This document shows positions 3,790 through 62,359 of a stretch of DNA of 64,000 nt, one piece after another. The translations under genes were made by a program, and so were the position numbers. Positions within the stretch are counted from its first letter, which is position 1. The number at the start of each line of letters is the position of its first letter. Origin of the DNA: Candidatus Marsarchaeota archaeon (GTDB taxonomy: Archaea > Micrarchaeota > Micrarchaeia > Micrarchaeales > CABMGC01); assembly GCA_023379055.1 (NCBI GenBank), contig JAMCSX010000017.1:35868-99867 (forward strand), in the 5' to 3' direction. The notes beneath the pieces were generated by a model. That model did not search any database, had not been told where the DNA came from, and worked only from the letters and a program-made list of their open reading frames with translations.

Positions 3790-5031
3790 TCATTTCTTTT
3801 GCTGGATATTGTCCTTGAATGCCTTTAAGACCGGAAGATCCATTCCGGAGATAAATGCAAGCGCTGACCCGCCGCTGGTTATCCTCTTTCCCCCTAGCAG
3901 GTCGTATGCCCTGTCAAGCCCTATGTCGTCCACCGAGTCTGCGGAATTTCCGCCGAAGGTGTAATTCAGCGCCTTCTCCCCCATGAACCGCGTTATCAGC
4001 CTTATGGTCTGGTTGTAGCCTTTCTCATATCGTCCTACGGGGCCTGCATAGACTATCATCTCTGAACGGTCTATTTCCTCGAAGAATCTGGCAAGCGTTG
4101 CATCGCCTATGTCGGCTATGCTGCCCTTGCCAGGAAGGTTCTCGAGTGTCGCTGTCCCTCCGCCTTCTATTATGAAGTCCGTAGGCGCTATGACCCTGTT
4201 CCCGAATTCGCGCACTAGCCTTGAAGCCGTATCAATACTCCCGGTACCATTTATGAATCTCTCATTAGCACCGGTGAAGCTCTCCTTGTTGGTAACGTAT
4301 CGTACGGATTGTCCAGGCACGCCTCCGCAAAGTACGGTTACATTATTGTTCTTGGCAATCTCATACACATACTCGAATTTCTCCCATTTCTTTCCCCCGA
4401 ATATCACGGATGTCTTCTTTCCGGAACTGATGCTTGATGCAATCTCCTCCAGAATCTTGAGCTCAGATTCCATCTGAAGGCCCAGATATGAAGGTAGCAC
4501 TGGCAGGAACCCTATCAGCGAGGTGTCGGATCTGTGCATTGTGGCAGGCGCATCGTTTATGAATATCCCTGCCAGTCCTGCAAGCGACTTTACCATCCTT
4601 GAATCCGACATCTCCTTGACAGATCTGAACCCTGCCTTCTCGTCATCGTCGTCCCTGACGTTCTTTAGCATTAGCACCTCCCCCTCTTTCAGGTCCGATG
4701 CGGCCTTTGCGGCTGCATCGTTGGTAAGCGAGTCGACATACTTGACCGATAGGCCCTTGGTAAGCGACTCTATGACCTGGGCGTGCTGCTCCATGCTTTC
4801 CAGATAGTCGCTATCGCCCCTTCTTCCCTGATGGCTGAGGATTATTGGCGTCAGTCCGCTGTCGGAGTAGGTCTGGATGGATTTTGCGCACGACTTGAAC
4901 CGGAGATTGTTCCTGCTCACCTGCCCTTCCTTTACTGGCACGTTTATGTCGACCCTGACAAGCGCCTTGCCCTTTATCTTCCCCAGCTGGCCACTTATGA
5001 AAACCTCTTGCGGAAGCTGCATCGGATTCAC
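3790..5031 (-). CDS. pgk: phosphoglycerate kinase
   Basis: 413 aa. ALVRVDINVPV and ILSHQGRRG near the N-terminus, with archaeal PGK length and layout. Its start overlaps the fbp stop by 4 nt. Confidence 0.9.
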   Translation of the reverse strand: MNPMQLPQEVFISGQLGKIKGKALVRVDINVPVKEGQVSRNNLRFKSCAKSIQTYSDSGLTPIILSHQGRRGDSDYLESMEQHAQVIESLTKGLSVKYVDSLTNDAAAKAASDLKEGEVLMLKNVRDDDDEKAGFRSVKEMSDSRMVKSLAGLAGIFINDAPATMHRSDTSLIGFLPVLPSYLGLQMESELKILEEIASSISSGKKTSVIFGGKKWEKFEYVYEIAKNNNVTVLCGGVPGQSVRYVTNKESFTGANERFINGTGSIDTASRLVREFGNRVIAPTDFIIEGGGTATLENLPGKGSIADIGDATLARFFEEIDRSEMIVYAGPVGRYEKGYNQTIRLITRFMGEKALNYTFGGNSADSVDDIGLDRAYDLLGGKRITSGGSALAFISGMDLPVLKAFKDNIQQKK

Positions 5032-6110
5032 TTGAATCTCTTCCTGGCTTCTCCCATCATTGCACGATATCCCTTGCTGTATTCAAGCTCCTCCGGTATC
5101 AAGGTTGCAGGATGCACGAAACCCTGCTCCCTCATCATCTCGGCCTTCTTTACGGCCTTGGTCCTGAAGTAGTCCCAGTCGGGGGTTTCAAACGCGTCTG
5201 TGTGGGCCGTGAATTTGCCCTCATGCATGCTGAATAGCAGAGCACTGACTATGGGTATGCAGTAGTTTGCCGTGGCCGCAGTTTTTATCTTTACAGGCAT
5301 CAGTGGCATGTGGTGGCTGCCACGCGTGTCGCCTGCAACGTAGTGCACTGTCTTGAAAACTGAGCATGCCTCCTCAGTAGCCGGGAAATCCTTCTGGAGC
5401 CTGATCAGTGCTGCAGGATCATCCTTTCCGACGTATGTGCCGCCTATGTTATGCAGCCTGTCAGTTGTGGCGGACAGTATTGGGTCTGTCGCATTCCTTA
5501 CAGAATCTATGACATACCTGCCAGGATACATGAGCACAGTGGCTATGAGGAAATTGTCCTGAGGTATGCTGAACTCCGCCTTCTTGTTGTCCATTACATC
5601 CATTACAGTAAGCTTGACTTCGCTTGCAAGTTTGGGGTTCACTATAAGCCCGGTGTTTGCAGAGGGCTCGCAGAATAGCCTGTATAGCGGATAGTTGAAC
5701 GCGCCAGGCTCGGTCTTGTCCATGGTTATTAGCGCGAACGCCTCATTAGGCCTCTCCTCGAACTCCATCTCGGCGACTCCGGGACCCATGCCCTTTACAT
5801 TTCCTGAAAATGAATCCTTCAGAAGGTCCTGGCCTGCGCCGTACAGCCCCTGGCCTTTTGCAACATCCGCAGCTGCCTTGAATGCATCCCATGCAAGTTT
5901 ATGCACTTTGCTGCTGTTAACCCCGTTCTTGTGTGACATCAGTATGTGTATGTCGTCTCCGGTGTACCCTATGTATGTGTCTATAAGCCCTGCCTTTGCC
6001 TTGTTCTTCTTTACGAAACGCTCCACACTGCTCAGAAGCTCGTCGCTTGGTCGGGTATGACCGCCTATCGAGCCCACATCTGCCTTTATCGCTGTTACGG
6101 TTATTCTCAT
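5028..6110 (-). CDS. fbp: bifunctional fructose-1,6-bisphosphate aldolase/phosphatase (class V FBPase)
   Basis: 360 aa. The N-terminus MRITVTAIKADVGSIGGHTRP and the overall sequence match the archaeal FBP aldolase/phosphatase family. Confidence 0.9.
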   Translation of the reverse strand: MRITVTAIKADVGSIGGHTRPSDELLSSVERFVKKNKAKAGLIDTYIGYTGDDIHILMSHKNGVNSSKVHKLAWDAFKAAADVAKGQGLYGAGQDLLKDSFSGNVKGMGPGVAEMEFEERPNEAFALITMDKTEPGAFNYPLYRLFCEPSANTGLIVNPKLASEVKLTVMDVMDNKKAEFSIPQDNFLIATVLMYPGRYVIDSVRNATDPILSATTDRLHNIGGTYVGKDDPAALIRLQKDFPATEEACSVFKTVHYVAGDTRGSHHMPLMPVKIKTAATANYCIPIVSALLFSMHEGKFTAHTDAFETPDWDYFRTKAVKKAEMMREQGFVHPATLIPEELEYSKGYRAMMGEARKRFK

Positions 6111-6352
6111 TTTATTACCTATTACGCCACTGTTGGCATCTTACACATAATCCTTGTGCACATAGCTGCAGTCCCACTTCCTTCCCGGATATTCAGATGT
6201 GACATCCTCCAATTAATGTGACACCGTTTTATCGAATACTATAACGCAATAACACCTTTTATAACTTTTCTTATCGGTTAATTTGCGAGGTCCACGGTTT
6301 ACACTGGACATCAGGACTGCCAAGTACTGCATCGAATGCAGTGCGGCGAATC

Positions 6353-14280: not shown

Positions 14281-14441
14281 AGACTAATACCTTGTAAATC
14301 ATACTTATTTAATTCAAAAAGCTTTTTAAGATTACCGAATTACAGCCTGCCACTGCGCACGCCACTGCAGCCGTTATTTATTACCAGAAAGCTTTAAAAG
14401 AGCCTGATGGCATAAATTAGTATCGTGGTAAAAAGGATTTT

Positions 14442-15269
14442 ATGATGACCAATCAAAAAACGCCACCGGAAGCCCCCAACCTTCAGTTGGGAGGAGATGT
14501 CACGAGGAATATAATTTTTGGCATACTTGCCCTGTGCCTTATGTCTGCAAATGTCATGGCCTCAATGAGCGTAACGTACATAAACACTACGGCAGTGCTA
14601 AATAGGACCACAAGCGCAAAGATAGTGGAGACAGTGCTCATAAATATAAGCAACTCATCCATAAACCAGTACCTTCAGGACAGGCAGGCGATAAACCTTA
14701 CTCTTGGCGGCTGGGGCAGGGTGCTGCACACGCAGTCCCTAATACAGCAAGTGTTCAACCCCAATTCAAGCATATCGAACTTCACGCTGCTGCCTGGGCC
14801 CATAATAGGCAATGCAGGATATGGAGGGTATGCAAAGCTTACAATGATATACACTGCATATAACATAACGACTATAAGGAATGTGGGCCCGAGGAAATTT
14901 GACTACTCGTTCAACAGCCAGTCGCTCAACTTTGAGCATACGGCAAGCGGCGAAGCGCTTCCGCAGAACACGCGCTTCAATATAATCATACCGAAAGGCA
15001 TCGAAGTTGTGTCGGTATATCCCGAACCAGATTATCCGTATCCGAATTTTGGTGGCAACTACAACAACGTAACCATGTTTTCATGGTATGCAGGCGAGCC
15101 GCTCTCGAAGTTCACTTTCTCGTACATAGTAATGCAATCACTTCAGGATGAGGTTATAAGCTACTTCTCCGGAGTTTATGCAACATATACGCAACAGATA
15201 TATTTGCTGGCAATAATACTGGCAGGCGTGCTTTCGATTTATATATATTCAAAGGTATTTGCAGAGTAG
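14442..15269 (+). CDS. secreted/membrane-anchored hypothetical protein, N-glycosylation-sequon rich
   Basis: 275 aa with an N-terminal signal/anchor (IIFGILALCLMSANVMAS), a C-terminal TM (IYLLAIILAGVLSIYIY) and 8 N-x-S/T sequons. I recognise no family. Confidence 0.6.
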   Translation: MMTNQKTPPEAPNLQLGGDVTRNIIFGILALCLMSANVMASMSVTYINTTAVLNRTTSAKIVETVLINISNSSINQYLQDRQAINLTLGGWGRVLHTQSLIQQVFNPNSSISNFTLLPGPIIGNAGYGGYAKLTMIYTAYNITTIRNVGPRKFDYSFNSQSLNFEHTASGEALPQNTRFNIIIPKGIEVVSVYPEPDYPYPNFGGNYNNVTMFSWYAGEPLSKFTFSYIVMQSLQDEVISYFSGVYATYTQQIYLLAIILAGVLSIYIYSKVFAE

Positions 15270-21743: not shown

Positions 21744-21764
21744 ATAAGGGGCTTCGCCCCTTAT
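21744..21764. repeat. GC-stem hairpin ataaggggc-ttc-gccccttat (copy A of a two-member family)
   Basis: 9-bp stem with a 3-nt loop. It lies 41 nt downstream of the ClC stop and 60 nt downstream of the tnpA stop. A related copy is at 62342-62359. Confidence 0.75.
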
Positions 21765-21823
21765 AAACCCTAAGCACGGGCGGGTTCCTCCGCAGCAAGC
21801 TAGCGGTATCTCACCCGCCCGAA

Positions 21824-22303
21824 TCAGTTGAATTGCAGTTTCATCTGATGTCCTTCCTCTTCGTGTTGCAGAAACGGTTCGAAGGAGACATCCTGTCTTC
21901 TGATGTAATTCTGTATTATATTTTCGCCGACAGGACCGACACTGCTGTTACTATACTGTCCTCCCCAGAAATGTTTCTTGGGATATCGTTTTGTGAAGTT
22001 CGGCATTTCTTTGAAGATTTTTGATGCGGAATGCGACTTCAGGATCTGTACGACCTGTTCCATTGAAAGGTTGTTTGGCACATTTACTTCCATATGCACG
22101 TGTGCATAATCGTCTCCAAATGAGAACTCCTTTATTTTTATCTTGTACTGCATCTCAGTTTCTCGAAATGCGTCTGCAACAACCTTCTGCGTCTTCGAAT
22201 TTTTGAATACTTTGAATCGGTACTTTGATACAAGCACAATGTGCTCAAAATTGTATTGGAAGTCCGATACATTTTTATGATTTCCATGAGTTATACTCAC
22301 CAT
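21824..22303 (-). CDS. tnpA: IS200/IS605-family Y1 (HUH) transposase TnpA
   Basis: 159 aa. The HUH motif is in YAHVHMEV and the catalytic Tyr is in IIQNYIRRQ. Confidence 0.85.
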   Translation of the reverse strand: MVSITHGNHKNVSDFQYNFEHIVLVSKYRFKVFKNSKTQKVVADAFRETEMQYKIKIKEFSFGDDYAHVHMEVNVPNNLSMEQVVQILKSHSASKIFKEMPNFTKRYPKKHFWGGQYSNSSVGPVGENIIQNYIRRQDVSFEPFLQHEEEGHQMKLQFN

Positions 22304-22382: not shown

Positions 22383-22420
22383 TTCAACCCCCAACGAGGT
22401 TGGGGGAATTCTCTAGGTAT
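22383..22420. repeat. IS200 outer-end hairpin block ttcaaCCCCCAACgagGTTGGGGGaattctctaggtat
   Basis: 8-bp stem with a 3-nt loop at 22388-22406, with conserved flanks. A second copy with a compensatory stem change is at 53539-53576. Confidence 0.8.
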
Positions 22421-53435: not shown

Positions 53436-53515
53436 ATTTGCTTTGGCCAAAAAGGGGATTTTGCTTGGTGCTTTTGGATTTTTAGCCGACTGATATCAAA
53501 ATATTGAACGACGAT

Positions 53516-53528
53516 CTTAGGAGGGGAT
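53516..53528. repeat. 13-bp copy (cttaggaggggat) of the 3' end of tRNA-Thr(UGU); att-like distal repeat
   Basis: Exact match to 55193-55205, which lies inside the tRNA gene (T-arm/acceptor 3' strand), in the same orientation and 1.68 kb away. Confidence 0.6.
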
Positions 53529-53538
53529 GGGAAAATAA

Positions 53539-53576
53539 TTCAACCACCAACGGGGTTGGTGGAATGCTCTAGGTAT
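53539..53576. repeat. orphan copy of the IS200 outer-end hairpin block ttcaaCCACCAACgggGTTGGTGGaatgctctaggtat
   Basis: Aligns with 22383-22420. The stem change C>A in the 5' arm is matched by G>T at the pairing position of the 3' arm. No transposase gene is adjacent. Confidence 0.8.
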
Positions 53577-53599
53577 ACTACATTGATATCCCATACATA

Positions 53600-53728
53600 T
53601 CATTTCGCATATTCTTCGGGTGCCTTATCAAACTTTTCTTTGCATCCAAGAGAGCAGAAACGGTACTCATCGCCGGTCTTGGACGAGAAGATGGCCTTTG
53701 CAGATGCACGGCCTTGATGCACAGGCAT
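53600..53728 (-). CDS. YHS-domain miniprotein (42 aa)
   Basis: Below the ORF-track cutoff, so translated by hand: MPVHQGRASAKAIFSSKTGDEYRFCSLGCKEKFDKAPEEYAK. The C-terminal Y.FCS.GCKEKF...PE.Y is the YHS signature. The usual N-terminal Cys of DPVCGM reads His here. Confidence 0.6.
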   Translation of the reverse strand: MPVHQGRASAKAIFSSKTGDEYRFCSLGCKEKFDKAPEEYAK

Positions 53729-53792
53729 AACTCAGGAGACTATTGCTTTCGAATTCATACCATAGCTTAACAAGTACCGGATTTCTATGTTA

Positions 53793-54560
53793 TTAAAGTC
53801 CATCTTCAATAAGTAGTTCTGACGACATATTCATTATTTTATTCCAATTGGCTATTTTTAATCTTTTAAGTTTCTTTCGTAGTATAAGGTATGCAAGGGT
53901 ATAGCCTGCCCAGTGCGGAAATTCCTTATCGTCTGGACTTAAGAAGACCCTGTAATGAAGGTCTCTGCTTTTAATATCCAATTTCCCATTCAGTTTTGCC
54001 CACGTTTTTTGGGCCTGAGAGTTTGTTATGGCTGTTGACCAAGGCCTTATTGTTCCAACGCTATCCTCCTCAAAACACTGAGCTAGGCCTTCTAGGACTA
54101 GACTATCTAGGAGAGTAAAGTATCTAGGCAATTTGATTCTTTGGAATCTTATCGCATGATTGAATTCATGTGCAACCGTACCTATTATATACTTCTTCCA
54201 TTTAGATTTGATATTTATTGTGAGAAACAAAGTGTATGCGTTTTGTGTATAACCCGCTATTCCGCCCATTTTATCCTTAACAAATTCATCCTGAGTAGAA
54301 GAAGCAATAATTACTATATCATTTTCAATCTTTAGTAATTTTGATGCCGTCAGTAGACCCTTCTTTAAGAAGGGTATTGTTTTTTGCAGATTCATCTCAT
54401 AGTTTATTATGATTTTATAATTTCCAATTTTTAAATGTGAGACATCAAAATGCCTACCAACATCCCCAACGAGCTTACTTTGATTAGGAGTCATCTTTCT
54501 TGTCTCCATTTCTGTTTTTGTTGCAATCATATTCTCGCCTACTATAATATGTTCGTTCAT
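53793..54560 (-). CDS. putative zinc metalloprotease (DUF2268-like, HExxH)
   Basis: 255 aa with GTVAHEFNHAIRF. The gene is very AT-rich: 26% GC by hand count over 53793-53892, against 52% over 627-726. Confidence 0.65.
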   Translation of the reverse strand: MNEHIIVGENMIATKTEMETRKMTPNQSKLVGDVGRHFDVSHLKIGNYKIIINYEMNLQKTIPFLKKGLLTASKLLKIENDIVIIASSTQDEFVKDKMGGIAGYTQNAYTLFLTINIKSKWKKYIIGTVAHEFNHAIRFQRIKLPRYFTLLDSLVLEGLAQCFEEDSVGTIRPWSTAITNSQAQKTWAKLNGKLDIKSRDLHYRVFLSPDDKEFPHWAGYTLAYLILRKKLKRLKIANWNKIMNMSSELLIEDGL

Positions 54561-54624
54561 ATTATTAATGCTTTCAGTCGTATTTTCCCGATATATTGTC
54601 CTGAGAGTACTTATTTAATCGTGA

Positions 54625-54656
54625 CATCCTCCCACCGATAAATCGTGTGGGCTTCC
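54625..54656 (-). repeat. hairpin repeat copy A (minus strand: ggaaGCCCACaCGAtttaTCGGTGGGagg)
   Basis: 5-bp outer stem plus 3-bp inner stem with a ttta loop and conserved flanks. The partner copy lies 160 bp away in the same orientation. Confidence 0.75.
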
Positions 54657-54706
54657 AATGATTGATGATTTTTATGAAAAACCAAAAACCAAATATAGTT
54701 CTCAAT

Positions 54707-55140
54707 TCAACGACACAGCTTGCAACTGTCGACTTTGCAGTTGTAGAGGCAAATATCTCCAAGAGAGTTAATTCGGGTGCGTCCCACCCTCCCACGACTA
54801 AAGCCCGTGGGCTTTCCATAAGCTGATGAAACATGTCGCACAGCAACAATCGGTTCAACAACCGCATCTGGACGAATGAGCCCGTCTACAGGGACTCGCC
54901 TATTGGAGATCTGGAAAGAATCACGGTTAGTGGCATCTCTCCGCTCCAACAGGGATTTTATGGCAATATTCAAACTTGCCTCGTCTTTCCAGAGCCTGTT
55001 GAATTCAGAATTCTCCTTCAAAGAAAAGTCCCTGGGAATTCTACCCTTCTTGGCAGTAATTCCATCAATCTGCTTTCTTCAAGGTCTTTCATTCCGTGTT
55101 TAAGCCAAGTTCCTATCTCGATATCAAAATCCTTTGCCAT
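54707..55140 (-). pseudogene. frameshifted / degenerate ORF of unknown family next to tRNA-Thr
   Basis: Reading from ATG 55140 gives MAKDFDIEIGTWLKHGMKDLEESRLMELLPRRVEFPGTFL*. A second frame is open across the same junction (..KQIDGITAKKGRIPRDFSLKENSEFNRLWKDEASLNIAIKSLLERRDATNRD...) and then runs through the hairpin repeats. I am not confident of any family; a vague HEPN-like helical pattern is all I see. Confidence 0.3.
54785..54817 (-). repeat. hairpin repeat copy B (minus strand: ggaaaGCCCACgGGCtttaGTCGTGGGagg)
   Basis: Same architecture as copy A. The inner stem differs by compensatory changes (CGA/TCG versus GGC/GTC). The G-T pair only forms on the minus strand. Confidence 0.75.
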
Positions 55141-55189
55141 TATGTCGGGTTTATCCTCTCCAGGCTTTGCTCTTTAAGTCTTTTAGGTG

Positions 55190-55261
55190 AGCCTTAGGAG
55201 GGGATCGAACCCCCGACTTCCGGTTTACAAAACCGGCGCTCTACCACTGAGCTACTAAGGC
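55190..55261 (-). tRNA. tRNA-Thr (anticodon UGU)
   Basis: The reverse complement folds as acceptor GCCTTAG/CTAAGGC, D arm GCTC-AGTGGTA-GAGC, anticodon arm CCGGT-TTTGTAA-ACCGG and T arm GGGGG-TTCGATC-CCCTC. Confidence 0.9.
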
Positions 55262-55370
55262 ACAGTAAAGAATATGCAGGTGCAGATTTTAAACGTTTGC
55301 GTGATGATAGAGGGGTATTGCACTCTTTAGGTTATTTAAAGATTTTTGCAGATAAAATATGCAATAGGCA

Positions 55371-56717
55371 GTGGGTGTTTTGCCGCTGCACATGGGTTTT
55401 GTTTTGAGCTACAGGATGGGGATAGGACTTGCAGTTGCACTGTGCCTCAGCGCGATAATAGGTGACACGCTCTTCGTGTTCACAGGTGTGCCCATAACTG
55501 AAATAGGCGCAAACTCCATAATGGCATACGTTATTGTTGGAATAATCGCCATCATCATAGCAATGCAGCTTGGTGAGCTAAGCTCCATAATGCCACATGA
55601 GAAGGGGGGCCCGTATTCATATGTGACGAAATCGTTTGGCAGCGAACTTGGCTTCGTTACTGGAATACTGCTGTTTATAGGCTACTGTGCAATAGTCGCT
55701 GCGGTAACTCTCGGATTCGGAAGCTACTTCCTGTCGCTTTTCGGCCTTGGAGGTACAGCTGCGCACATTTCGATTGCAATAGTACTCATAATCGCAATAT
55801 CCATTATAAACATGCGGGGCGTTAAGAGCGCTGTGGAACTCAACAAGATGCTGATTGCCATAACTCTGCTTACTGCTGCATTGTTCTTTATATTTGCCGT
55901 GTTTTACGGACATGATCACGGTTCGCTTGCAACCAATTTCATCGGCAGCGCGGCGCAGAACATGCCAGGCGCATTTTTTCAGGCAATAACCGCAATTGTG
56001 TTTGCATTCGCAGGATTTCAGATAATAGTGACCCTGACGGATAACGTAAAGGGGCTCGGAAAGGGAGTGACTAGGGCAATGGTTTATGCGATACTGATAA
56101 GCATAGTTGCTTACATAGCGATAACATTCGGGCTGCTTATGATGCTTCGCGCATCCAGTTTCACGATAACAAGCGAACCGCTGTTATATGCTCTGAGCAG
56201 CGTACACGCACCATCCATAGTCGTGATACTTGTGGACTTTGGCACCCTGTTCGCCATAGCAGCGTCCGTGATTGCAATAATATTCACTGCCTCCAGGCTG
56301 TTCTTCCAGATAGGAAATGACGGGCTTCTGCCCGGGATCACGCGCAGATTCGACAGGAAAAGGGGCGTTGCAACAAGCGGAGTGGTTATGACGTCGCTCG
56401 TATCCATAATGATACTGTTCTCTGGAAACCTGTACACCATACTCTCCATAAGCAACTTCGGCATGATATTCTCCTGGCTCATGTCCTGTTTCGCTGTAAT
56501 AAACATGAGAAGAAGAAAGAAGATCGGCGAGTATTCATCTCCGTATTATCCCTACCTAACGATGGTCGGGATAATAGCATGCCTTATATTCATCTTTGGA
56601 CTGCCGAGCATAAGCCTTGCCATAGGGGTCATAGTCCTGCTGTTCCTGATACTCGTGTACTATATAATAGTGGAGATAAAGTACAGGGAGGTACCGCGCG
56701 TGCGTCTTTTTGATTAG
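55371..56717 (+). CDS. APC-superfamily amino acid permease
   Basis: About 440 aa with 12 TM helices and the typical N-terminal ...SAIIGDTLFV... region. The start is uncertain: GTG at 55371, or ATG at 55392 or 55416. Confidence 0.8.
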   Translation: MGVLPLHMGFVLSYRMGIGLAVALCLSAIIGDTLFVFTGVPITEIGANSIMAYVIVGIIAIIIAMQLGELSSIMPHEKGGPYSYVTKSFGSELGFVTGILLFIGYCAIVAAVTLGFGSYFLSLFGLGGTAAHISIAIVLIIAISIINMRGVKSAVELNKMLIAITLLTAALFFIFAVFYGHDHGSLATNFIGSAAQNMPGAFFQAITAIVFAFAGFQIIVTLTDNVKGLGKGVTRAMVYAILISIVAYIAITFGLLMMLRASSFTITSEPLLYALSSVHAPSIVVILVDFGTLFAIAASVIAIIFTASRLFFQIGNDGLLPGITRRFDRKRGVATSGVVMTSLVSIMILFSGNLYTILSISNFGMIFSWLMSCFAVINMRRRKKIGEYSSPYYPYLTMVGIIACLIFIFGLPSISLAIGVIVLLFLILVYYIIVEIKYREVPRVRLFD

Positions 56718-62234: not shown

Positions 62235-62341
62235 CTTTCAATGAAGATGTTTTACAGAGAGAAGCCATACTGACATCCTTCCGCAGCCAAAGCATATGGT
62301 ATTTCCCGCTCACGTTGTTAAAAATAGCTGAAAAATAAAAG

Positions 62342-62359
62342 TAGGGGCTTTCGCCCCTA
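62342..62359. repeat. GC-stem hairpin taggggc-tttc-gccccta (copy B of the family at 21744-21764)
   Basis: 7-bp stem lying 7 nt downstream of the ftsZ stop (minus strand). The outermost pair is swapped relative to copy A (T-A versus A-T). Confidence 0.75.

Follow-up and report, generated by a model that had tools for sequence, protein, structure and literature searches.

The closest described relatives of the locus analyzed here are the TnpB-only (IS1341-type) insertion sequences of the IS200/IS605 family, for which ISDra2, IS608 and ISGst2 serve as models, together with the guide RNAs of TnpB (omega-RNA or reRNA; Karvelis 2021, PMC8612924; Meers 2023, PMC10055086), the palindrome-associated transposable elements (PATEs), and the REP elements with their RAYTs, which are domesticated IS200-like Y1 transposases. 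For IS608/ISGst, a mechanism has been described in which TnpA uses a DNA guide (PMC10055086), and in ISDra2 the last ~16 nt of the reRNA come from the flanking DNA (PMC8612924). PATEs carrying omega-RNAs have likewise been described, and they often encode omega-RNAs that act with TnpB in trans (PMC10055086). The concepts of the omega-RNA, of PATEs with omega-RNAs and of covariation between TAM and guide are all, then, already in the literature. The DNA under study is a stretch of 64,000 nt (the window) from a Candidatus Marsarchaeota MAG, and a locus within it is almost certainly the fossil of a TnpB-only IS200/IS605-family (IS1341-like) insertion sequence, of a type often met with in DPANN and other archaea.

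Two hairpins near a tRNA gene

Two matches to GCCCAC-N11-GTGGG lie in the window, where shuffles lead one to expect 0.02; both are on the minus strand, with a start-to-start spacing of 160 nt. An earlier note on this DNA, made from its letters, had reported two hairpins of the same orientation at this place and spacing; they are indeed present, and their end coordinates agree with that report within ~3 nt. The features that frame the locus are as follows.

54631-54652, minus strand: hairpin 1 (G-CCCAC-A-CGA-TTTA-TCG-GTGGG), the subterminal hairpin of a right end and the terminal stem-loop of an omega-RNA scaffold
54791-54812, minus strand: hairpin 2 (G-CCCAC-G-GGC-TTTA-GTC-GTGGG), a second copy of the family end hairpin
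55189-55261, minus strand: tRNA-Thr(UGU), the 3' end of which marks one border of the variable island containing the remnant

The core of hairpin 1 (54652-54631) reads GCCCAC-ACGATTTATCG-GTGGG and that of hairpin 2 (54812-54791) reads GCCCAC-GGGCTTTAGTC-GTGGG. The two agree in their outer 5-bp stem, TTTA loop and flanks, and all three pairs of the inner stem are changed with pairing kept (CG, GC and AT in hairpin 1 vs GC, GU and CG in hairpin 2). The compensatory nature of these changes, proposed from the two window copies, was upheld in 55 distinct family copies gathered with the hairpin interior left unconstrained by the search pattern, among which 119 of 165 inner-stem cells pair, compared with 69 +/- 5.5 in shuffles. 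The 5' flanks of the two hairpins are out of register (GGAAG-CCCAC in hairpin 1, GGAAAG-CCCAC in hairpin 2), and for that reason GGAARGCCCAC, the motif that had been suggested for finding further copies, would miss hairpin 1.

Homology to a close relative (L117) breaks exactly at 55190, at the tRNA gene, and resumes at 54489, and at this same hotspot the relative carries an intact TnpB element of the family described below. A 13-nt repeat of the tRNA-Thr 3' end, considered as an att site, is present only in part in that relative. A conceptual protein obtained by frameshift correction from the DNA between the tRNA and hairpin 2 looks HEPN-like by eye and had no Pfam match at E<=1. The two ORFs that overlap the interval between the hairpins (54574-54867 and 54707-55021) had no Pfam match either.

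The archaeal TnpB family and its terminal module

The search for further copies in related genomes, as the earlier note had advised, was productive. The pattern AAGCCCAC-N11-GTGGGAGGRTG returned more than 116 copies, nearly all of them archaeal, against ~9 expected by our own estimate from the specificity of the pattern and the size of the database, and family copies were found in genomes of Micrarchaeota, Marsarchaeota, Thermoplasmata and Nitrososphaerales. An ORF of 402-439 aa is closed by the motif in nine loci, and Pfam scans of five of these ORFs identified every one as TnpB (OrfB_IS605, Cas12f1-like_TNB and HTH_OrfB_IS605); the TnpB of L117 also passes the NCBIfam model guided_TnpB with 271 bits (cut-off 100), and close family proteins number 459 at E<=1e-100. 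In intact elements a left-end hairpin of the same type stands 40-80 nt upstream of tnpB, and in L021, L077, L078, L094, L102 and L117 left-end and right-end hairpins of the form CCCAC-N10-12-GTGGG flank tnpB in the same orientation. The suggestion that the hairpins belong to IS200/IS605 elements was thus borne out by their presence, equally oriented, at both ends of TnpB-encoding elements in other archaea, and the minus strand, which had been picked as the functional one, is the tnpB-coding and omega-RNA strand of the family.

The ends of the family are well defined by comparison. Similarity between copies from other genomes ends directly after ...GATGTCAC, and the right-end tail AGGATGTCAC is found in 105 of 117 copies. 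On the other side, in 20/20 left ends, TTA-N-(C/A) sits 15-17 nt upstream of the stem and its N is the complement of the base directly 5' of that stem, a covariation that matches the TnpA DNA-guide mechanism of IS608/ISGst. An intact element is laid out as the target motif TTA-N-C, a left end with its CCCAC..GTGGG hairpin, tnpB (~400-440 aa), an omega-RNA scaffold of ~170 nt that overlaps the tnpB 3' end, the right-end hairpin and finally AGGATGTCAC. A Y1 transposase (TnpA) supplied in trans would recognize both hairpins on the single-stranded top strand and would be directed to its cleavage sites by pairing with the nucleotide(s) directly 5' of each hairpin, and the omega-RNA, extended into the flanking DNA, would guide TnpB in re-cutting the emptied site.

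The family supplied the frame in which the interval between the window hairpins could be read, and the following features were assigned.

54621-54789, minus strand: complete but diverged homolog of the family terminal module (omega-RNA scaffold), located with nhmmer
54775-54789, minus strand: omega-RNA stem 1 (GGGTG-GGACG-CACCC; 5 bp, conserved GGAC loop)
54723-54743, minus strand: variable scaffold hairpin CAACTG-CAAAGTCGA-CAGTTG, at the position of the family variable stem-loop in alignment A1
54698-54714, minus strand: conserved box GTCGTTGAATTGAGAAC, in nearly invariant columns of A1, part of which is the 3' side of a long-range helix
54621-54630, minus strand: right-end tail AGGATGTCAC, containing the transposon-encoded motif TGTCA (54626-54622)
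54601-54620, minus strand: flank directly 3' of the right end, GATTAAATAAGTACTCTCAG, at the guide position of an omega-RNA

Hairpin 1 and the tail that follows it are the right end of an element. The hairpin scores 45 bits against the right-end profile, its interior is identical in two other loci (L022 and L087), and the element boundary falls between 54621 and 54620 (+/- 1 nt), the similarity among copies of other genomes stopping just past the tail. Upstream of this end, an nhmmer profile of the terminal module that was built without the window sequence matched 54789-54621 over its positions 9-162 of 162 (E=7.3e-25, 82.6 bits); the module is the omega-RNA scaffold of the family, which in intact elements overlaps the tnpB 3' end and reaches to the right end. 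Family members score 66-118 bits against the profile, with a median of about 104, and the window copy lies in the lower tail of that range; pairwise BLASTN gave 76% identity over 96 nt to L094 (E=1e-11) and 77% over 97 nt to L104 (E=6e-15).

The consensus structure of the family omega-RNA has 26 pairs in four covarying helices. Its cells are paired in 91.5% of cases vs 34-43% when the partners are slid, double-change cells number 195 vs at most 72, and the covariation score is 0.618 vs at most 0.147. Stem 1, present in 49 loci, shows 10-19 compensatory double changes at each of its pairs, with no pair broken in 30 sequences, and it is perfect in the window copy, which, from A1, keeps 3/5 pairs of helix 2 and 4/5 of helix 3. 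The small hairpin that the earlier note had seen between its two repeats is the window version of the variable stem-loop, the counterparts of which read GTTCC-AACAG-GGGAC in L088 and AGCGC-AACAG-GCGCT in L115. That hairpin and the lack of a family or Pfam ORF around it both stand, but the interval is no featureless spacer, being a full-length homolog of the ~170-nt omega-RNA/right-end module, and in this sense the alternative guess of a structured RNA was also right. Because the scaffold stops where the transposon does, the guide would come from the flank; GATTAAATAAGTACTCTCAG is the putative positional equivalent of one, and TTAAC followed by GATTAAATAAGTACTC would be the predicted TnpB target of the window scaffold.

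No tnpB accompanies this scaffold: tblastn of the window with nine family TnpBs gave nothing significant, the best match (E=0.007) lying inside an SMC gene, and the window unit is consequently a derivative or remnant and not an IS. A TnpA with matching end hairpins had also been thought of, but the window has a single IS200-like Y1 transposase (21824-22303; PF01797, E=1.8e-25), detected when 36 mid-sized ORFs were scanned with Pfam, and the hairpin in its flanks is another one, CCCCCAAC..GTTGGGGG; no cognate Y1 TnpA with CCCAC/GTGGG ends was found within the window. A TnpB of 94% identity exists in a Marsarchaeota genome. One protein, P0139, was considered as the family TnpB of the source assembly and rejected, as it belongs to another MAG.

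Origin and present state of the unit

The identity of hairpin 2 is the point on which the history of the unit turns. It is separated from stem 1 by one nucleotide (A, 54790), and its upstream side has the following feature.

54813-54836, minus strand: 5' flank of hairpin 2, CATGTTTCATCAGCTTATGGAAAG, with the near-target motif TTTCA (54831-54827) 15 nt from the stem

We lean towards hairpin 2 being the left-end hairpin of the element itself, placed 1 nt upstream of stem 1 by one internal deletion. Such a deletion would have removed tnpB and produced a ~200-nt ORF-less, PATE-like derivative with the guide RNA only, which would since have decayed, as its non-canonical left flank and imperfect target motif suggest, and which is probably immobile. 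A competing history, somewhat doubtful but deserving of a hearing, is that an older, truncated copy left hairpin 2 behind as its right-end hairpin (or as a solo left/right hybrid scar), and that a deletion then joined it to stem 1 in the omega-RNA of a second element; in that event, the fusion would have occurred at a shared AGGGTG microhomology and the two hairpins would never have bounded one element. The profiles side with the second history, the right-end profile scoring hairpin 2 at 23.9 bits vs 18.4 for the left-end profile (better by 5.5), as does the 3' flank AGGGTGGGAC, which matches the right-end tail at 7/10 positions (one tail at 8, six at 6) vs 2-4/10 for left-end flanks. The bases of AGGGTGGGAC also serve as omega-RNA stem 1, however, and reading them as a right-end tail places a G where TGTCA requires a C. 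The base 5' of the stem is G, as in all right ends but in only 2/21 left ends; the best match of the 5' flank is a 9-mer, CATGTTTCA, common to the right-end flank of short elements, though the similarity of this flank to right-end flanks is not above random. Hairpin 2 moreover has neither of the conserved left-end flanks (GTGAGCGGGAAAT upstream and ATGAAAGCGAAC downstream) and no proper TTA-N-C target motif. TTTCA has one mismatch to the family rule and retains the diagnostic C, which is weak evidence for a left end because near-matches of this kind have a background rate of 6-19%.

Set against these points, wherever else a genuine family hairpin stands upstream of a right end in the same orientation, it is of the left-end type (18/18), the strict right-end pattern matches no more than once in any of the 116 fetched loci, and hairpin 2 has the GGAAA-N-CCCAC 5' flank that is typical of left ends. 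Upstream of it no likeness to omega-RNA or tnpB was detected, the profile seeing only the hairpin, and a second, decayed omega-RNA there was considered and rejected, since its pairwise score was below the shuffle mean. Two right ends would also require two insertions and at least two deletions. The locus is, on the other hand, an insertion hotspot, and truncated right-end remnants and a solo hybrid scar do occur elsewhere in the window, at 14448-14503 (the extent of the nhmmer match; the similarity may begin near 14430) and 62321-62271. Comparison of hairpin 2 with the left ends of those loci whose right end equals hairpin 1 gave no decision between left and right end.

Whichever end hairpin 2 may have been, ORF-less relatives are a regular part of the family. 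In other loci their hairpin-to-hairpin distances are 116-351 nt, four of them (L017, L024, L036 and L070) retain the complete omega-RNA, and L004 and L074 are one 291-nt ORF-less element at two sites in one genome, from which it follows that ORF-less derivatives of the family transpose. The window unit shares with PATEs the want of any ORF with a family match between its hairpins; multiple dispersed copies or mobility were not seen, there being one copy in the window and the same copy at the same site in a near-identical assembly (L120). The junction of hairpin and stem 1 had no match in contigs of the metagenome collection when the hairpin was sought within 25 nt of stem 1. The earlier note had proposed a PATE-like element, and as to the IS200/IS605 kind and the absence of an ORF this is correct; a left end was not demonstrable, the left-end flanks and TTA-N-C being absent, and together with a junction that was not found elsewhere this makes the unit a decayed single-copy fossil and not a demonstrable intact PATE. 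The locus is, in sum, a PATE-like, omega-RNA-bearing remnant, an ordinary transposon fossil and a known kind of object.

Would such a unit still function, as a mobile mini-PATE and/or as an orphan omega-RNA gene whose transcript is employed in trans by a TnpB from another part of the genome? The retention, at least in part, of all four helices with a perfect stem 1, the several ORF-less relatives that keep exactly the omega-RNA, the trans-acting omega-RNAs of PATEs (PMC10055086) and the 94%-identical TnpB all speak for it, but its profile score of 83 bits compared with the family median, the 2/5 broken pairs of a long-range helix, the missing canonical target motif and left flank, the single copy with a junction absent from metagenomes, and the lack of a cognate TnpA or TnpB within the window make it improbable. 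A still bolder version, and one we consider slightly more improbable again, would see in the ~200-nt unit a minimal "guide-only" selfish element, or else an orphan omega-RNA that has been exapted. Its transcription would run toward the neighboring DUF2268 gene, and a TnpB from another part of the Marsarchaeota genome would take up the RNA in trans; if so, the recurrent ORF-less copies that retain the omega-RNA would reflect selection for guide-RNA parasitism of TnpB. At the far end of the scale, the idea that the hairpins are a free-standing structured RNA or terminator pair unrelated to mobile DNA, or a conserved peptide-coding tail, is effectively refuted. The hairpins are GC-rich, and the similar translations GKPTGFSRGRV and WKPTRFIGGRM (both KPTxFxxGR) might seem to favor it, but a T-run is absent after both hairpins, Rfam gave no matching family even at E<=10 (the gathering score was reached by tRNAs only, and 53500-55600 had nothing relevant), and in other genomes the motif goes with TnpB elements. 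The coding tail was rejected, the ORFs having no Pfam match and the peptide similarity reflecting the DNA repeat, because in intact elements tnpB runs into the hairpin.

Comparison with described elements

Within the window, recognition of the remnant as transposon debris explains 700 bp of "non-coding" DNA next to tRNA-Thr and disposes of two spurious ORFs. The wider yield of the comparison is a definition of the ends, of the target motif TTA-N-C, of the DNA-guide covariation and of an omega-RNA structure backed by covariation, all for an archaeal TnpB family that is very abundant. This definition could aid the annotation of DPANN and Marsarchaeota genomes and the choice of compact TnpB/omega-RNA pairs.

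The family follows the IS200/IS605 models closely: it has subterminal hairpins in the same orientation and no inverted terminal repeats, inserts 3' of a 5-nt target motif (TTA-N-C, vs TTGAT in ISDra2 and TTAC in IS608) that covaries with a "guide" base beside the left hairpin, has its right boundary ~10 nt beyond the hairpin, and encodes a TnpB with OrfB_IS605 and Cas12f-like TNB domains. Its hosts are DPANN, Marsarchaeota and other archaea, and not the bacterial model organisms, and the window copy departs from the models in that tnpB, a canonical left flank and a proper target motif are all missing. The scaffold resembles the described omega-RNA/reRNA in being a structured region of ~150-170 nt over the tnpB 3' end and the right end, with multiple covarying helices; it differs in that the family scaffold matches no Rfam model and that the window copy is orphaned from its protein. 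As in PATEs, the window unit is ORF-less, ~200 nt long and bordered on both sides by family hairpins in the same orientation, and other genomes hold bona fide mobile ORF-less copies of the same family, some with the whole omega-RNA. PATEs by definition have both functional ends and multiple copies, whereas the left side of the window unit is non-canonical and one copy is known. With REP elements the hairpins share their short, GC-rich and extragenic nature and, in all likelihood, recognition as single-stranded DNA by an HUH Y1 enzyme, but REPs are highly repeated, often in inverted pairs, and unlinked to tnpB or omega-RNA, whereas the hairpin of this family is the end of TnpB elements.

The two hairpins and their family

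The window carries two hairpins of one type on the same strand:

54651-54631, minus strand, stem of hairpin 1: ...TTGGAAG-CCCAC-A-CGA-TTTA-TCG-GTGGG-AGGATGTCAC, then the element boundary and G...
54811-54791, minus strand, stem of hairpin 2: ...ATGGAAAG-CCCAC-G-GGC-TTTA-GTC-GTGGG-A-GGGTGGGACGCACCC...

Hairpin 2 lies 160 nt upstream of hairpin 1 on the minus strand, and a repeat finder returned the pair as a 40-nt direct repeat of 73% identity at a spacing of 160. All positions of the inner three pairs differ between the two and pairing is nevertheless kept, and GCCCAC-N11-GTGGG occurs exactly twice within the 64 kb, with 0.02 expected from shuffles, confirming the earlier note's description of two same-strand hairpins with a compensatory inner stem. 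The search across genomes which that note had proposed did find further copies: a scan that took one genome from each prokaryotic species, with the pattern AAGCCCAC-N11-GTGGGAGGRTG, gave at least 116 loci versus about 9 expected by chance (estimated by us from how specific the pattern is and how large the database), and among the matches listed nearly all were archaeal, i.e., from Micrarchaeota, Marsarchaeota, Thermoplasmata, Nitrososphaerales and a few haloarchaea. At nine loci an ORF of 402-439 aa ends in the motif, and the five of these ORFs that were scanned all matched OrfB_IS605, Cas12f1-like_TNB and HTH_OrfB_IS605. The copy of a close relative scored 271 bits against NCBIfam guided_TnpB (cut-off 100), and the family is very large, with 459 proteins at E<=1e-100, named IS200/IS605 TnpB/OrfB by NCBI.

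Similarity between copies in unrelated contexts ends directly after ...GGAGGATGTCAC, which is therefore the right end (RE) of the element. In intact elements another hairpin of this type, set in flanks of its own, precedes the tnpB start by 40-80 nt, and this left end (LE) has the layout TTA(A/T)C, boundary, AAcGTGAGCGGGAAAt-CCCAC-N10-12-GTGGG-ATGAAAGCGAAC. As in IS200/IS605, the subterminal hairpins share one orientation, inverted repeats are absent, and the left side has a target motif of 5 nt.

The outer five pairs were fixed by the search pattern, and their invariance among copies is thus an artefact of ascertainment, but the 11 interior bases were left free. Among the 55 distinct interiors, 119 of 165 inner-stem cells were paired, compared with 69 +/- 5.5 (maximum 86) in shuffles, so that the covariation of the inner stem that had been proposed from two copies was borne out; the unpaired base after the outer stem was a purine in 48 interiors, and the loop was TTTA or TTCA in 49. 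The minus strand had also been proposed to be the functional one, and this held, since homologs encode tnpB on its equivalent. The motif TTA-N-(C/A) lies 15-17 nt upstream of the stem in 20/20 left ends (including that of a relative at a collinear locus, L117, and one scar in the window), and in every case its fourth base can form a Watson-Crick pair with the base directly 5' of the stem (T:A 10, A:T 8, G:C 2). Right ends invariably have G directly 5' of the stem, and their terminal motif, TGTCA, likewise has C in the fourth position. Site choice by Y1 TnpA through pairing with a DNA "guide" by each hairpin was shown for IS608 and ISGst2, and comparable covariation was described in that work (PMC10055086). 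The covariation at both ends is that which would be expected from Y1 TnpA guide pairing, and it supports family membership by mechanism.

A predicted omega-RNA scaffold between the hairpins

The earlier note had described a small hairpin and no credible ORF in the interval; the hairpin is real, and the interval is not a spacer. A profile of 29 terminal regions from other genomes, built with the window left out, matched window 54789-54621 over positions 9-162 of 162 (E=7.3e-25, 82.6 bits), and family members scored 66-118 bits (median near 104), so the copy in the window, although diverged, is complete. In pairwise comparisons, 54793-54698 aligned to the ~110 nt that lead up to the RE hairpin in an intact element, L094 (76%, E=1e-11), and 54715-54621 to three further loci (L104, L107 and L038). 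For an alignment of 30 sequences RNAalifold predicted four helices. Two structures of the family have these positions in the window:

54789-54775, minus strand, stem 1 in the window: GGGTG/CACCC
54743-54723, minus strand, variable stem-loop of the family: the small hairpin noted earlier

In this alignment 91.5% of cells in the predicted structure were paired, versus 34-43% when the 3' partners were slid, with 195 double-change cells (<=72 in slid controls) and a covariation score of 0.618 (<=0.147). Each of the five pairs of stem 1, which has a GGAC loop, showed 10-19 compensatory double changes, and no pair was broken. No Rfam model matches the interval. In family elements it extends from the tnpB 3' end to the RE boundary; the TnpB guide RNA (reRNA or omega-RNA) is ~150 nt, with its guide derived from the flank (PMC8612924). 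The interval matches such an RNA in position and size and is a predicted omega-RNA scaffold.

Other remnants and genomic context

Further remnants or possible remnants of the family, as well as a Y1 transposase gene and a second copy of its associated hairpin, were found in the window:

62271-62321, minus strand, solo hairpin scar, ~50 nt: TTAAC, boundary, AACGTGAGCGGGAAAT-ACCATATGCTTTGGCTGCGG-AAGGATGTCA
14448-14503, plus strand, truncated RE remnant: GATGACCAATCAAAAAACGCCACCGGAAGCCCCCAACCTTCAGTTGGGAGGAGATGTCAC, boundary (nhmmer E=1.3e-4)
6199-6210, minus strand, exact RE-tail 12-mer GGAGGATGTCAC (~0.008 expected by chance)
21824-22303, minus strand, IS200-like Y1 transposase, 159 aa (PF01797 E=1.8e-25; motifs HVHMEV, QNYIRRQ)
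53539-53566, minus strand, solitary tnpA-type hairpin, CCACCAAC-CCC-GTTGGTGG-TTGAATTATT, just downstream of the YHS gene

The scar, with a canonical LE flank and target motif, one decayed hairpin and an RE tail, resembles the product of an LE x RE deletion and is intergenic, upstream of aIF5A and directly after a GGGGCGAAAGCCCC hairpin. Pattern-retrieved "right ends" such as L027 (~25 nt upstream of the motif, minus strand), with a perfect TTACC 15 nt before the stem and the LE-like flank AACTAGCGCAGAAAG, are probably similar hybrid scars. The truncated RE remnant, whose similarity by eye may start near 14430, overlaps the predicted start of an ORF (14442-15269) without a Pfam match. The 12-mer, with no recognisable hairpin upstream, could be yet another remnant in an advanced state of decay. 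At 21749-21765 and 62340-62357 (minus), and just upstream of the element in L022, there is a GC-rich hairpin, GGGGCGAA(A)GCCCC, with T-rich sequence after it. It recurs directly upstream of insertion sites with TTAAC and also follows the tnpA gene; it may be a terminator that offers elements a favoured place to insert. The hairpins flanking the Y1 tnpA gene (21770-21835 and 22383-22410) differ from those of the family (CCCCCAAC-CTC-GTTGGGGG upstream, GGGCGGGT...ACCCGCCC downstream), and this transposase does not evidently mobilise the CCCAC/GTGGG family. The tnpA-associated hairpin has exactly two copies in the window (0 expected), and the solitary one is also found in L117 with its loop changed.

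ORF-less copies occur elsewhere, either with a complete omega-RNA scaffold (L017, L024, L036, L070) or with only the terminal hairpin and ~250 nt of shared filler unrelated to tnpB (L004, L010, L073, L074, L022, L034). One 291-nt element lies at two sites of the Micrarchaeota MAG MAS3.bin106 (L004 ~4900-5227 and L074 ~1125-1452, both plus), each copy bounded by TTAAC and ...GATGTCAC, which is direct evidence that ORF-less copies transpose; L074 has a third left end at ~7164.

The permease adjoining the tRNA has an NCBI counterpart of 100% identity from a Candidatus Marsarchaeota MAG, and contig JAMCZS010000032.1 (GCA_023484965.1) matches the window at 99.92% over 9.1 kb, the whole hairpin region included. 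L117, from a more distant relative (DUF2268 protein 91% identical), is collinear on both sides; its homology breaks exactly at the tRNA-Thr 3' end (55190) and restarts at 54489. Between these points L117 has HicA, an ORF of 46 aa and, on the opposite strand, an intact TnpB element of the family (406 aa) with a canonical TTAAC-bounded LE and RE. The window remnant thus belongs to a variable island next to a tRNA gene, in a lineage where the family has been active. The DUF2268 and YHS block (53523-54489; L117 3763-4729) is 95% identical and the flanking core genes 88-91%, which may hint that the block moves or recombines apart from its surroundings. The tRNA-Thr 3' end recurs exactly over 13 nt as a direct repeat, ATCCCCTCCTAAG (53516-53528 and 55193-55205, minus, 1.68 kb apart), which brackets YHS, DUF2268 and the hairpin region, and may be an old integration scar; the homology block ends at 53523, where L117 shares just ...CCCATCCCC of the repeat, and 32 nt past its tRNA L117 has the tRNA end again in degenerate form.

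Origin of hairpin 2 and comparison with known systems

There is no tnpB in the window, and homology to the tnpB 3' part stops exactly at the end of hairpin 2, which is 1 nt from stem 1. We incline, at slightly better than even confidence, to hairpin 2 being the element's own left hairpin, with a single deletion having taken everything between it and stem 1. In keeping with this, all genuine family hairpins that lie upstream of an RE in the same orientation at other loci are of LE type (18/18), a second strict right-end match is absent from all of the 116 loci listed, and ORF-less derivatives are common, four having LE, spacer, complete omega-RNA and RE. No omega-RNA-like sequence lies upstream of hairpin 2, the GGAAA-N-CCCAC flank is present, and TTTCA, with the correct diagnostic C, stands 15 nt upstream, although near-matches have a background rate of 6-19%.

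Hairpin 2 could instead be the RE or solo scar of an older copy, fused to a second element by deletion at the shared AGGGTG, a possibility to which we give around one chance in three. It scores higher against an RE profile than an LE profile (23.9 vs 18.4 bits), it lacks LE flanks, and comparable truncated RE remnants exist elsewhere in the window. Its 3' flank agrees with the RE tail at 7/10 positions (one tail 8, six 6) and with LE flanks at 2-4/10, evidence that is partly confounded because the same bases form stem 1 and its GGAC loop. When metagenome contigs were scanned for a family hairpin of any kind no more than 25 nt from the stem-1/GGAC/GAA.../GGAGA signature, there were 0 matches, and the junction therefore looks like a one-off. 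It is very unlikely that the unit is still live as a guide-only element or has been exapted as an orphan omega-RNA.

The IS200/IS605 or PATE layout suggested earlier stands for the same-orientation end hairpins and for TnpB in homologs, but not for the window unit as a member: without tnpB it is not an insertion sequence, and it is ORF-less, as a PATE is, and may or may not have two functional ends, but it is not present in multiple copies. PATE-like elements "often encode omega-RNAs" that need TnpB in trans (Meers et al., PMC10055086), and so this kind of object was already known; new here is only the description of an archaeal family's ends, target motif and RNA structure. The object in the window is derived from a TnpB-only IS200/IS605 element with its omega-RNA, and it would work as they do.
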